Assembly (NCBI RefSeq): GCF_050320075.1
Contig: NZ_CP190018.1
From: Escherichia coli
GTDB lineage: Bacteria > Pseudomonadota > Gammaproteobacteria > Enterobacterales > Enterobacteriaceae
DNA: 64,000 nucleotides
Direction: 5' to 3' (one strand)
Numbering within the stretch: position 1 is the stretch's first letter; every line of letters starts with the position of its first letter. Position numbers: made by a program. This document shows positions 33,001 through 36,000 of this stretch, one piece after another.

Positions 33001-36000
33001 AGTAACTTCTTGATACATAAAAGGTATAGGGTTGGGAAAAATAGCTACATTGGGTAAAGAAAAACCGTATGCTTGGTAGTTTTTTAGACTTGGTGATGAA
33101 ATATAATCAGCCTTTATTGCAGAGTCTAACTCTCGCTGATAACGATTCAAGTTAATGGTTACTTTATTTAATTCTTGTAATAACTTAGAAGGGGCATGCA
33201 GTCGTACATGTCGTTTGAATTTTGTATGTGTTTCATTATGATAAAGCCCCCACGCATCTGGAAGTTCGACAATATCATTTTCTGTGGCTATACTGTTTAT
33301 CTTATCTTCTAATTGTTTAGGGGATAATCTTTCGTCATTCCTAATAATCTGTGCATCAATGCCATTTTCTAATAGTAGATGATATGCACTCGCCACATAG
33401 TTCGAAATTCCATTGTTTTTATGTGAAAAAGGACTTACGAAGTAATATGTCATTGATGATATCCTCGATTATGTAAAATAAAGTTAAGATAATTAAATGT
33501 TAGCTAAAGGTAAGCTCTATTAAAAGAGTTAAACTATGGTATTAATGCTTTCATCAAAAATGTAATTTTCGATCGCATGCTTTACATCTTTATAAACTGT
33601 TATGTGATTGTCTCTACCGATATAGATTGCAATATCACAATATGATTTTAATAAATTCATACTATGGGAAACCATTAAGAAACTTGATTTTTCATGCTTT
33701 TTATTAAAGAGTGATAAACATTTCTCCTTAAATCTGGCATCTCCTACAGCCATAACTTCATCAACAAGATAATAATCAAAATCAAATGCCATGCTGAGTC
33801 CAAATCCTAACCGAGAACGCATGCCAGAAGAATATGTTTTTATTGGCATGTCAAAGTATTTCCCCAGTTCGGAAAATTCCTCTACAAATGAAACCTTATC
33901 TTGCAGCTCATCTTTTTTAGCATAAAGTCTTGCAACAAATTTAACATTTTCACGCCCTGTCAGACTGCCTTGAAAACCACCAGCTAAACCTACTGGCCAT
34001 GAAATGGTTTGATCAGTAAGTATTCTCCCCTTATCTGGTCGATCTATACCACCTATCATTCGAAGCAATGTTGATTTACCTGCACCATTGCGTCCAACTA
34101 AAGCAACACTTTTTCCTGTGGGTAATTCAATATTTAAATCTTTAAAAACATAATGTCTTCCTTTAGGTGTACGATATGATTTGGTGAGATTCTCAATACG
34201 TATCATGAGGTTAACATAGCCTCCTCTTTGAAACGGTAAAGGCAAAGTCCTACGAAAAACACTACTAAAGAAAAAAATGCAAGATAATTAATACTAACAC
34301 CTTCACTTATATATCCCGGTACAACAGATTGGCGACTTAACTCCACAACATGTACTAAAGGATTCCATAATAAATATCCCCAGTATATTTTAGGGATAGA
34401 ATGGAGAGGAAACATTACGCAAGATATGAAATAAAGAGGTTTAATCATTATGGGCAAAAATTTTTCCGTTTCTGGGAAAGTTTTACCTAACACCATGAAA
34501 ATTAAACCTATACCAAGAGAAAATATAATAAGTAATCCCCAAGTTGCAGCGAGTATAATGATGTTTAAAAATGAAAATTCTTCTCCAAGTAGACCTACAA
34601 TTGACATGAGGATTATGTAAACACCACTATATATTAATGCTTCAAGAAGGGTTCGTGAAATTATGGTGTCAATAGGCTTTATAGGCCTGTAATTAAATAA
34701 GCCCTGATTAGAGTTTATTGCTCCAATAGAGCGGACAGCAATATTACTAAAAAGAAAATAAGGGATAAGTCCGTTTAGAAGAAACACTGGGAACGATATA
34801 TCTGGCATAGTTCTATGCATAATATATCCAAATATACCAATCAAGATTATCAAATGTGCTGTTGGCTCAAGGAGTGCCCATAAATACCCCAGACGATATT
34901 TACCAAAACGAGTCTTAATTTCACGAAGAAATAAAGCTTTTACTGCTGCTATTTGAACTTCAAAACCACTTCTTCTAGCCATTTGAGATATAACCTTAAT
35001 ATATTTTGGTACGCTACCGCCCTTGGCTCTAGCTACCAGCATGCTCGGGCGTACCATATGAGACAAACCAGAATGGACAGATAAATATTTCGTCTGGTAT
35101 TAGTTTGTCTTTTCTTTACGAAAATACTTATAGATTGGACAATGAAAAATTTGGTTTAAGGCAGTCCAACCTATGTAATGTTATTGAAACATCCTGCTAA
35201 TAATCTTAAATTTAATGTTTCATTAAGTTCTATCAATTTAAACACATTGATTTGCGAATTCTATCATTTAGACTTACAGATAACTCCAGTGTTTAATATG
35301 TAAACATGCCTCATAAATTGCAAGGTAGATTGCAGGTTGCTAATCTTTTGTTACTTATATAAAATCTGTTTTGTTTATTTTATATCAAATTTTATTTATT
35401 GTTCAATGCAGAATTGATTTCTAATGTAATAGTGTCGCAGTGTAACTGTGACTCCCCATAATAAACCCCATTAACCTGTGTCTTAACCAATAAATACCCC
35501 CGAAACTTCTTAAACAGTTTCATATCTGGTTTAAAATCAGCCTGCCAGAACTGGTGCAAATGCCCTTGATACGTTAAGCCTTTGATGTCGTACAGGGCAT
35601 TGCCCATCACTTTGAGTGGTTTGTTATGAATCAGCGCAGAGATCCCCGCCGTACTGTTAATTGTTACCACCGCTTTTGCATGGCGTAATAGTTCCGGCAT
35701 CGGGAGATCGTGCACATAAATGACTCGCTCCCCTAAGCCATATTCCTTACTTAGCCGCTTAATTAATGGTCGATAGAGTCTGTGACCACGATCCATCGGA
35801 TGATGTTTGATCACCAAATAACTCTCTTTCGGCGCTTTACGCGAAAATGAGTACATGACTTCATTAATATAGTCACGCACATCGTTATAATTGCTGTGGT
35901 TACGAATTTGGCTATCGTTATATACCTGCAAAACGGCAAGATAATAACGTTGATCCAGGTCATTCATTAACCTCGGCAATACCTTACGCTGTGTTACCTT

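Follow-up and report, generated by a model that had tools for sequence, protein, structure and literature searches.

A conserved ops element ahead of kpsM in an Escherichia coli capsule locus with region 1, kpsMT and region 2 in the same direction

We analyzed a window of 64,000 nucleotides (nt) from Escherichia coli (contig NZ_CP190018.1) that contains a kps capsule locus in which kpsFEDUCS (region 1), kpsMT and region 2 all lie on the minus strand, with the type II secretion genes gsp/yghD following on the plus strand. The spacer between kpsS and kpsM carries a genuine ops element within a JUMPstart sequence, of canonical type and located in a divergent kpsM lineage. The element most probably serves as a functional site for RfaH loading, of the kind usual for kpsM, and would carry transcription through region 2. 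The canonical group 2 counterpart is the ops/JUMPstart element in the region 3 leader of the K5, K1 and K2 loci (Stevens et al. 1997, reviewed in PMC8960920). A preliminary description of this DNA had taken the role of ops and RfaH in read-through from kpsM to region 2 as established, which agrees with PMC8960920 and with chromatin immunoprecipitation sequencing (ChIP-seq) of strain CFT073 (PMC9765446). The element itself is ordinary, and since it is textbook knowledge that ops and RfaH govern kpsM and region 2, it adds little on its own; its interest lies in the setting in which it occurs.

The kpsS-kpsM spacer contains an exact ops element and a full-length JUMPstart match

The kpsS-kpsM spacer (34983..35391, minus strand) is 409 bp long, untranslated and has a guanine-plus-cytosine (GC) content of 31%. 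As it spans exactly the interval from the kpsS stop to the kpsM start, any kpsM leader or promoter located between the two genes must lie within it. A motif scan of the 64-kb window found the exact 11-mer ops sequence GGCGGTAGCGT at 35021..35011 on the minus strand, which is the non-template strand for kpsM. The position just 5' of the kpsM start that the preliminary description had assigned to it is confirmed, with 28 nt separating the end of the 11-mer from the ATG at 34982. This is the single exact copy in the window, where shuffled sequences give an expectation of 0.02 (2 of 100 shuffles contained one). The extended 26-nt JUMPstart pattern TGGTAGCTNNNGCCANGGGCGGTAGC, which can be written TGGTAGCT-N3-GCCA-N-GGGCGGTAGC, has one exact match (35013-35038) and none in shuffles (0.00 expected). 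The ops core GGCGGTAG (positions 1-8) is exact at 35021..35014 (minus strand). Since this 8-mer alone occurs at chance frequency (2 found, 1.19 expected), the significance of the element comes from the longer match together with its strand and position. A chance occurrence of the 11-mer, for which the frequency of the core would speak, has next to no probability: the expectations for the 11-mer and the 26-nt pattern, and a position and strand shared with 36 other kpsM loci, effectively refute it. If one mismatch is allowed, 0.88 ops matches would be expected in the window. An ops-like sequence, GGCGGTAGCGA, is present inside kpsS on the antisense strand (36072-36082, plus strand); its core is also conserved in kpsS of K1 and other loci, and the site probably results from the kpsS coding sequence itself.

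The JUMPstart family (Rfam RF01707), known from the 5' side of polysaccharide, hemolysin and tra operons, aligns at 35046..35010 on the minus strand over the full model (1-38) with 32.8 bits and an E-value of 1.8e-5. As in the model, a short hairpin is followed by GGGCGGUAGCGU. The match departs from the model in a loop shortened by 1 nt, a mismatch in the outer stem pair and an A as the final base. The JUMPstart RNA alone folds no better than shuffled sequences (z of about 0). The window 12-mer, GGCGGTAGCGTA, is identical to that in the kpsM leader of K1 strain IHE3034, which contains TTGGTAGCTGTTAAGCCAAGGGCGGTAGCGTACC on the same strand relative to kpsM. Compared with the 12-nt reference ops GGCGGTAGCGTG (PMC5995543), T11 is present and position 12 is A instead of G. 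Within ops, G4, G5, T6, A7 and G8 are important and the core contacts RfaH (PMC5995543).

The distance between ops and kpsM is conserved

The ops element starts 370 nt past the kpsS stop. Two lines of evidence support the kpsM start at 34982, namely the start that RefSeq annotates in an identical locus and the alignment of the KpsM N-terminus with that of K1; by the same evidence, a longer mechanical open reading frame (ORF) from a TTG at 35066, which would make ops coding, was rejected as an artefact. The preliminary description had regarded the distance from ops to ATG as short, a view that does not hold. The functional ops of K5/K1 has been placed 28 bp ahead of kpsM (PMC8960920), the gap in K1 IHE3034 is 29 nt (28-29 nt in canonical loci as compared with 28 nt here), and in a survey of 45 Enterobacterales kpsM loci, one genome per species, GGCGGTAG was found 15-37 nt before the kpsM ATG in 36, with a median of 29.5 nt. 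The window value thus equals the published one and falls centrally within this range, leading us to reject a shortened distance. Placement of ops close to the start of kpsM is an ancient feature that has been conserved. It is the space available for a leader that is reduced. The canonical promoter PR3 lies 741 bp upstream of kpsM (PMC8960920), and because the PR3 region is absent here, at most about 370 nt are available before ops in place of the 741-nt canonical leader. The earlier claim of a short leader is correct in this respect only, the gap between ops and ATG being normal.

The same-direction layout points to an imported cassette

In canonical loci, kpsFEDUCS is transcribed in one direction and kpsM, kpsT and region 2 are transcribed from PR3 in the opposite, convergent direction, with region 2 placed between kpsS and kpsT. 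The window locus departs from this organization in that kpsMT and region 2 are not convergent to region 1, PR3 and its 741-nt leader are absent, and the upstream neighbor of kpsM is kpsS on the same strand rather than yghD/gsp. It shares with K5, K1 and K2 the succession of kpsMT and AT-rich serotype-specific genes downstream of ops. Region 1 itself is canonical, with 95-100% identity to K1 and other loci, 98-99% identity in the region upstream of kpsF that contains the promoter PR1, and adjacent gsp genes at the pheV/gsp site.

Several observations indicate where foreign DNA begins and ends. Homology to K1 and other canonical genomes breaks off some 60 bp ahead of the kpsS stop (at about 35454), leaving the last ~60 bp of kpsS different from K1, and resumes at 28037 at the end of yghD. 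GC content drops from about 50% to 29-35% exactly across the intervening ~7.4 kb. KpsM and KpsT share 75% and 73% amino acid identity with their K1 counterparts, and at the nucleotide level the window kpsM is at most 70% identical to the other alleles of this gene in E. coli. Of the 1,057-bp intergenic region between yghD and kpsM in K1, only the final 59 nt, from JUMPstart to ATG, have a counterpart in the window, and no similarity between the spacer and the canonical leader was found beyond these. Sequence comparison thus indicates that the canonical region 2, region 3 and PR3 have given way to an AT-rich cassette of about 7.4 kb (about 35453 to 28038), made up of the spacer, JUMPstart, kpsMT, its own region 2 and a junction sequence at the right-hand end. 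The preliminary description had spoken of a rearrangement; the divergent KpsMT, the unrelated spacer and the breaks in K1 homology argue that the usual region 3 was not flipped. We rejected a simple inversion of the canonical kpsMT and region 2 on these grounds, the breakpoints bounding a foreign AT-rich cassette.

The closest KpsM relatives are of a Phytobacter/Kluyvera type (loci L005-L008 and L023, 77-79% identity). Their kpsM leaders contain a JUMPstart variant nearly identical to that of the window (CTGGTAGCTAGAGCCAGGGGCGGTAGCGTG) with a gap of 28-29 nt to kpsM. These loci differ from the window in lacking any kps gene in the 4 kb ahead of kpsM, and in L007 kpsS lies convergent downstream, corresponding to the canonical layout. 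Counted back from the ATG, their homology to the window spacer covers only about 55-85 nt. The JUMPstart most similar to that of the window is found in L008 (QFQM01000458.1), a 2.4-kb contig labelled MAG: Flavobacterium psychrophilum that encodes enterobacterial-type KpsM and KpsT with 77% and 86% identity and is probably a mis-binned Enterobacterales contig. At the other end of the cassette, the right-hand junction between region 2 and yghD (28038-28570) is 83-89% identical in L050, L051 and L003, which carry different region 2 genes, so that the cassette family has common flanks on both sides. In RefSeq, an identical locus has a short insertion sequence remnant annotated as 'integrase core domain' just past the terminator-like hairpin described below, at about 28700-28900 of the window.

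Same-direction loci recur in E. coli and keep ops

Among 5,426 complete E. coli genomes, 37 contained matches to the spacer and 36 the kpsS-spacer-kpsM junction, including clinical isolates of sequence type (ST) 648 and one plasmid. Strains that carry this locus include NZ_CP008697.1 (ST648) and FDAARGOS_536. The region 2 of the window accompanies the junction in 22 of these 36 genomes, and overall the junction precedes at least four region 2 cassettes. The identical 409-bp spacer lies ahead of two other cassettes, in MRSN346647 and on a 187-kb plasmid of HNSQ2209, and an 83%-identical spacer lies ahead of a fourth in YZ22MPE6 (L003). The HNSQ2209 plasmid (L051, NZ_CP137739.1) carries kpsFEDUCS-spacer-kpsMT beside tRNA-Phe, an integrase and yqgA and appears to have captured a chromosomal island of the pheV region; the plasmid has IncHI-type transfer genes.

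Two further same-direction scaffolds have unrelated spacers. In the KL112-like ST131 genome of E. coli O25:H4 strain 18044 (L052, NZ_AP022326.1), a 376-bp spacer contains GGCGGTAGCATA 24 nt before kpsM (ops at 8935-8946), while the 5' half of JUMPstart is undetectable, with no RF01707 match at E<=1. In strain EC1 (L053), the spacer measures 155 bp and has GGCGGTAGCGTG at 27 nt from the ATG. Across the six same-direction E. coli loci examined, ops is always retained, at 24-28 nt from kpsM, and the spacer ranges from 155 to 415 bp in length. Adjacency of kpsS and kpsM in the same direction was found in none of the 45 species-level Enterobacterales loci.

Rearranged kpsMT clusters are catalogued in PMC13171606, and KL112 in ST131 has been described in a 2026 preprint (10.64898/2025.12.15.689991). 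With these loci the window shares the order kpsFEDUCS-kpsMT-region 2 on one strand, divergent kpsMT alleles and the loss of PR3; it differs from KL112 in its kpsM allele, spacer and region 2 and in retaining gsp. RNA sequencing (RNA-seq) of the same-direction KL112 locus showed kpsMT to be expressed at a lower level than region 1 (10.64898/2025.12.15.689991). The preprint states that ops was lost, a statement qualified by its retention in the KL112-like genome L052. Neither PMC13171606 nor the preprint analyzed ops or promoters in same-direction layouts. The layout is documented but little studied, above all in its regulation. None of six accessions looked up in the supplements of PMC13171606 for a K/KL type was found there.

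JUMPstart is the leader segment shared across kpsM lineages

JUMPstart is the only block of the leader that can be aligned across four kpsM lineages. The window and YZ22MPE6 share 78-83% identity in the distal spacer, 95-98% in kpsS and 89-96% in kpsM, while the 68 nt from JUMPstart to ATG contain a single difference. Another conserved feature is an imperfect hairpin formed by an inverted repeat (AGACAAAC / GTTTGTCT, inner CCAGA / TCTGG; 35061..35110, minus strand) located 14 nt upstream of JUMPstart. This hairpin (AGACAAAC...CCAGA...TCTGGTTTGTCT) has a predicted folding energy of -12.6 kcal/mol (z -2.5), and its stems are unchanged in YZ22MPE6, all differences being confined to the loop. We rejected it as an intrinsic terminator, as it has no U-tract. 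The whole spacer folds modestly better than shuffled sequences (z -2.2), with this hairpin alone standing out, weakly. Small ORFs in the spacer are only mechanical and encode 24-43 amino acids.

Probable RfaH recruitment at the window ops

By analogy with canonical loci, from which both RfaH binding and RfaH dependence at the window ops are inferred, RNA polymerase arriving from upstream would pause at ops and expose GGCGGTAGCGT on the non-template strand. RfaH would bind the non-template hairpin at ops and then travel with the polymerase, which would resist Rho-dependent polarity and H-NS roadblocks. RfaH would probably also aid the start of kpsM translation 28 nt downstream. Transcription could then cross about 6 kb of ~30% GC DNA containing kpsM, kpsT and the glycosyltransferase and TPR genes of region 2 up to a hairpin at 28972..28945. 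In CFT073, H-NS/StpA coat the kps locus, the RfaH ChIP signal begins at its ops, and in cells lacking RfaH the polymerase fails to reach the distal kps genes, as seen from travelling ratios (PMC9765446). The ~30% GC cassette would be the type of DNA in which RfaH counters H-NS and Rho, as at that locus. Region 2 still lies downstream of kpsT, as the preliminary description had stated, with the genes at 30184-33453 and 29013-30179 following directly on the same strand. It is reasonable to suppose that RfaH-dependent expression of region 2 would be preserved, because the downstream DNA has about 30% GC, the scan predicted intrinsic terminators neither in the spacer nor from kpsT to region 2, and the hairpin comes only after the TPR gene. 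A terminator match inside kpsM (34398-34375) was rejected as weak and below chance expectation.

The hairpin has a 12-bp stem and a T8 tail and is located 41 nt after the TPR gene (28945..28972, minus strand). The consensus scan for terminator-like sites that identified it found 1 where 1.0 was expected. From its position, it is likely the end of the capsule transcription unit.

Several points weigh against a working RfaH loading site. At 32.8 bits, the JUMPstart match falls 2.2 bits under the RF01707 gathering score of 35 bits, a near miss that leaves it unreported by the Rfam scan in gathering mode and visible only in E-value mode. It is also well short of the 58.5 bits of K1, its 5' half being weaker than in K1, and EC1 reaches 51.9 bits. 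Position 12 of ops is A and not the pause-promoting G, although the canonical K1 kps site has the same A and the substitution G12C abolished the pause at U11 but not RfaH recruitment in vitro (PMC5995543). In CFT073, the ops-like sites that recruit RfaH are all found in operon leader regions (PMC9765446), and the efficiency of loading may be affected if polymerase arrives solely by read-through from kpsS. Near-identity of the proximal leader could partly reflect ancestry shared with kpsM rather than selection. In addition, the promoter consensus scan of the region, with 11 matches against 13.1 expected in shuffles, is uninformative in such AT-rich DNA and assigns no promoter to kpsM.

Some of the same observations would fit a hitch-hiking relic, in which ops and JUMPstart arrived with the imported kpsM 5' end and are now unneeded. 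The lowered JUMPstart score, the KL112-type locus in which Rfam detects no JUMPstart 5' half and the description of ops as lost in the KL112 layout (10.64898/2025.12.15.689991) are in line with such a relic. It is nevertheless improbable: the ops core is intact in six of six same-direction loci, including the KL112-type locus, at 24-28 nt from the ATG amid otherwise unrelated spacer sequence, and the 6 kb downstream have the low GC content of the setting in which canonical loci need RfaH. The retention of ops at this distance in six (semi-)independent loci appears harder to explain without function.

The polymerase may come from a spacer promoter, from region 1 or from both

Polymerase reaching ops may originate from a promoter in the spacer, from read-through of region 1 transcription started at PR1, or from both. 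It is quite possible, though we put it forward tentatively, that a new sigma-70 promoter in the spacer or the 3' end of kpsS has replaced PR3, which would place ops close to the 3' end of a leader of about 270-390 nt. Two candidates, both read from sequence and unproven, could serve. Candidate A (35379..35406, minus strand) lies at the kpsS stop and consists of TTGAAC, 16 nt and an extended -10 TGaTATAAA; in the scan output it appears as TTGAAC, 18 nt and TAAAAT. It is kept in YZ22MPE6 save for the n of TGn. Candidate B (35258..35266, minus strand) is an extended -10, TGaTAGAAT, without a good -35, within a 47-nt block that has 2 changes in YZ22MPE6. The conservation of both motifs in a spacer that is about 80% identical overall, the equally -10-only nature of the canonical PR3 (PMC8960920) and the maintenance of a 100% identical spacer ahead of three different region 2 cassettes are consistent with a replacement promoter. 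On the other hand, promoter-like matches are no commoner than in shuffles and arise by chance in the AT-rich spacer, and conservation was judged on two lineages only. With a start in the spacer or at PR1, ops would lie downstream of it; no promoter was predicted in the 28-nt gap between ops and ATG.

Alternatively, and with rather less likelihood, kpsM would have no promoter of its own: polymerase from PR1 would read through kpsS and the spacer and acquire RfaH in the middle of a single operon, a unit of about 14.5 kb from kpsF to 28972. Such an operon would agree with the co-directional arrangement of all genes, the lack of a terminator-like site between kpsS and kpsM, and the canonical PR1 region in a locus devoid of the canonical PR3. 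In EC1, whose spacer is 155 bp long, a promoter ahead of JUMPstart would have only about 80 bp, and the expression of KL112 kpsMT below region 1 (10.64898/2025.12.15.689991) points the same way, the RNA-seq data being compatible with a spacer promoter or read-through alike. A single operon would, however, expose polymerase to Rho and H-NS over an untranslated AT-rich stretch of 370 nt before RfaH loads, the spacer contains several conserved -10-like motifs, and in canonical loci the region 1 transcript undergoes processing around kpsS (PMC8960920).

Other genes and RNAs of the window

On the minus strand, the locus begins with kpsF, E, D, U and C (36659..43372; ORFs and annotation of the identical locus), followed by kpsS, the final gene of region 1 (35392..36624; Pfam Capsule_synth, E 2.4e-90). 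Downstream of the spacer, divergent alleles of kpsM (34203..34982; ABC-2 permease, Pfam ABC2_membrane) and kpsT (33529..34206; ABC ATPase, Pfam ABC_tran) follow, the kpsT start overlapping the kpsM stop by 4 nt. Region 2 consists of two genes only. The first (30184..33453) encodes a multi-domain glycosyltransferase of 1,089 amino acids, the putative polymerase, whose RefSeq start is equivalent to window position 33396. Its Pfam matches are Glycos_transf_1 (residues 153-261), a weak Capsule_synth (477-636) and Glyco_transf_29 (913-966), corresponding to a GT4-like, a weakly KpsC-KpsS-like and a GT29-like part. The second (29013..30179) encodes a TPR-repeat protein of 388 amino acids (Pfam TPR families and annotation). 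Region 2 has no genes for sugar-nucleotide synthesis, which suggests that its polymer is built from housekeeping precursors and is possibly Kdo-containing. Elsewhere in the window and unrelated to ops, Rfam matches at gathering level were found for C0719 small RNA (9092-9313, minus strand, 298 bits) and STAXI RNA (59365-59518, plus strand, 139 bits).

Implications for capsule regulation

The same-direction layout represents a natural experiment in which PR3 and the 741-nt leader with its H-NS, SlyA, FNR and Fur sites have been removed while ops was kept at 28 nt from kpsM. Retention of this distance after the loss of PR3 and its leader suggests that the position of ops relative to the kpsM start is a constrained feature, whereas the promoter would be replaceable. 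The layout also bears on whether RfaH loads onto polymerase leaving an upstream translated operon, and such mid-operon loading is the only part of the system with real potential for novelty. If a single operon exists, ops would be the mid-operon point at which polymerase gains RfaH after 8 kb of region 1 with ~50% GC and before 6 kb of imported DNA with ~30% GC, and PR3 and the coordination of two convergent promoters would be dispensable. For the capsule types encoded by these loci, rfaH would stay a valid anti-virulence target.

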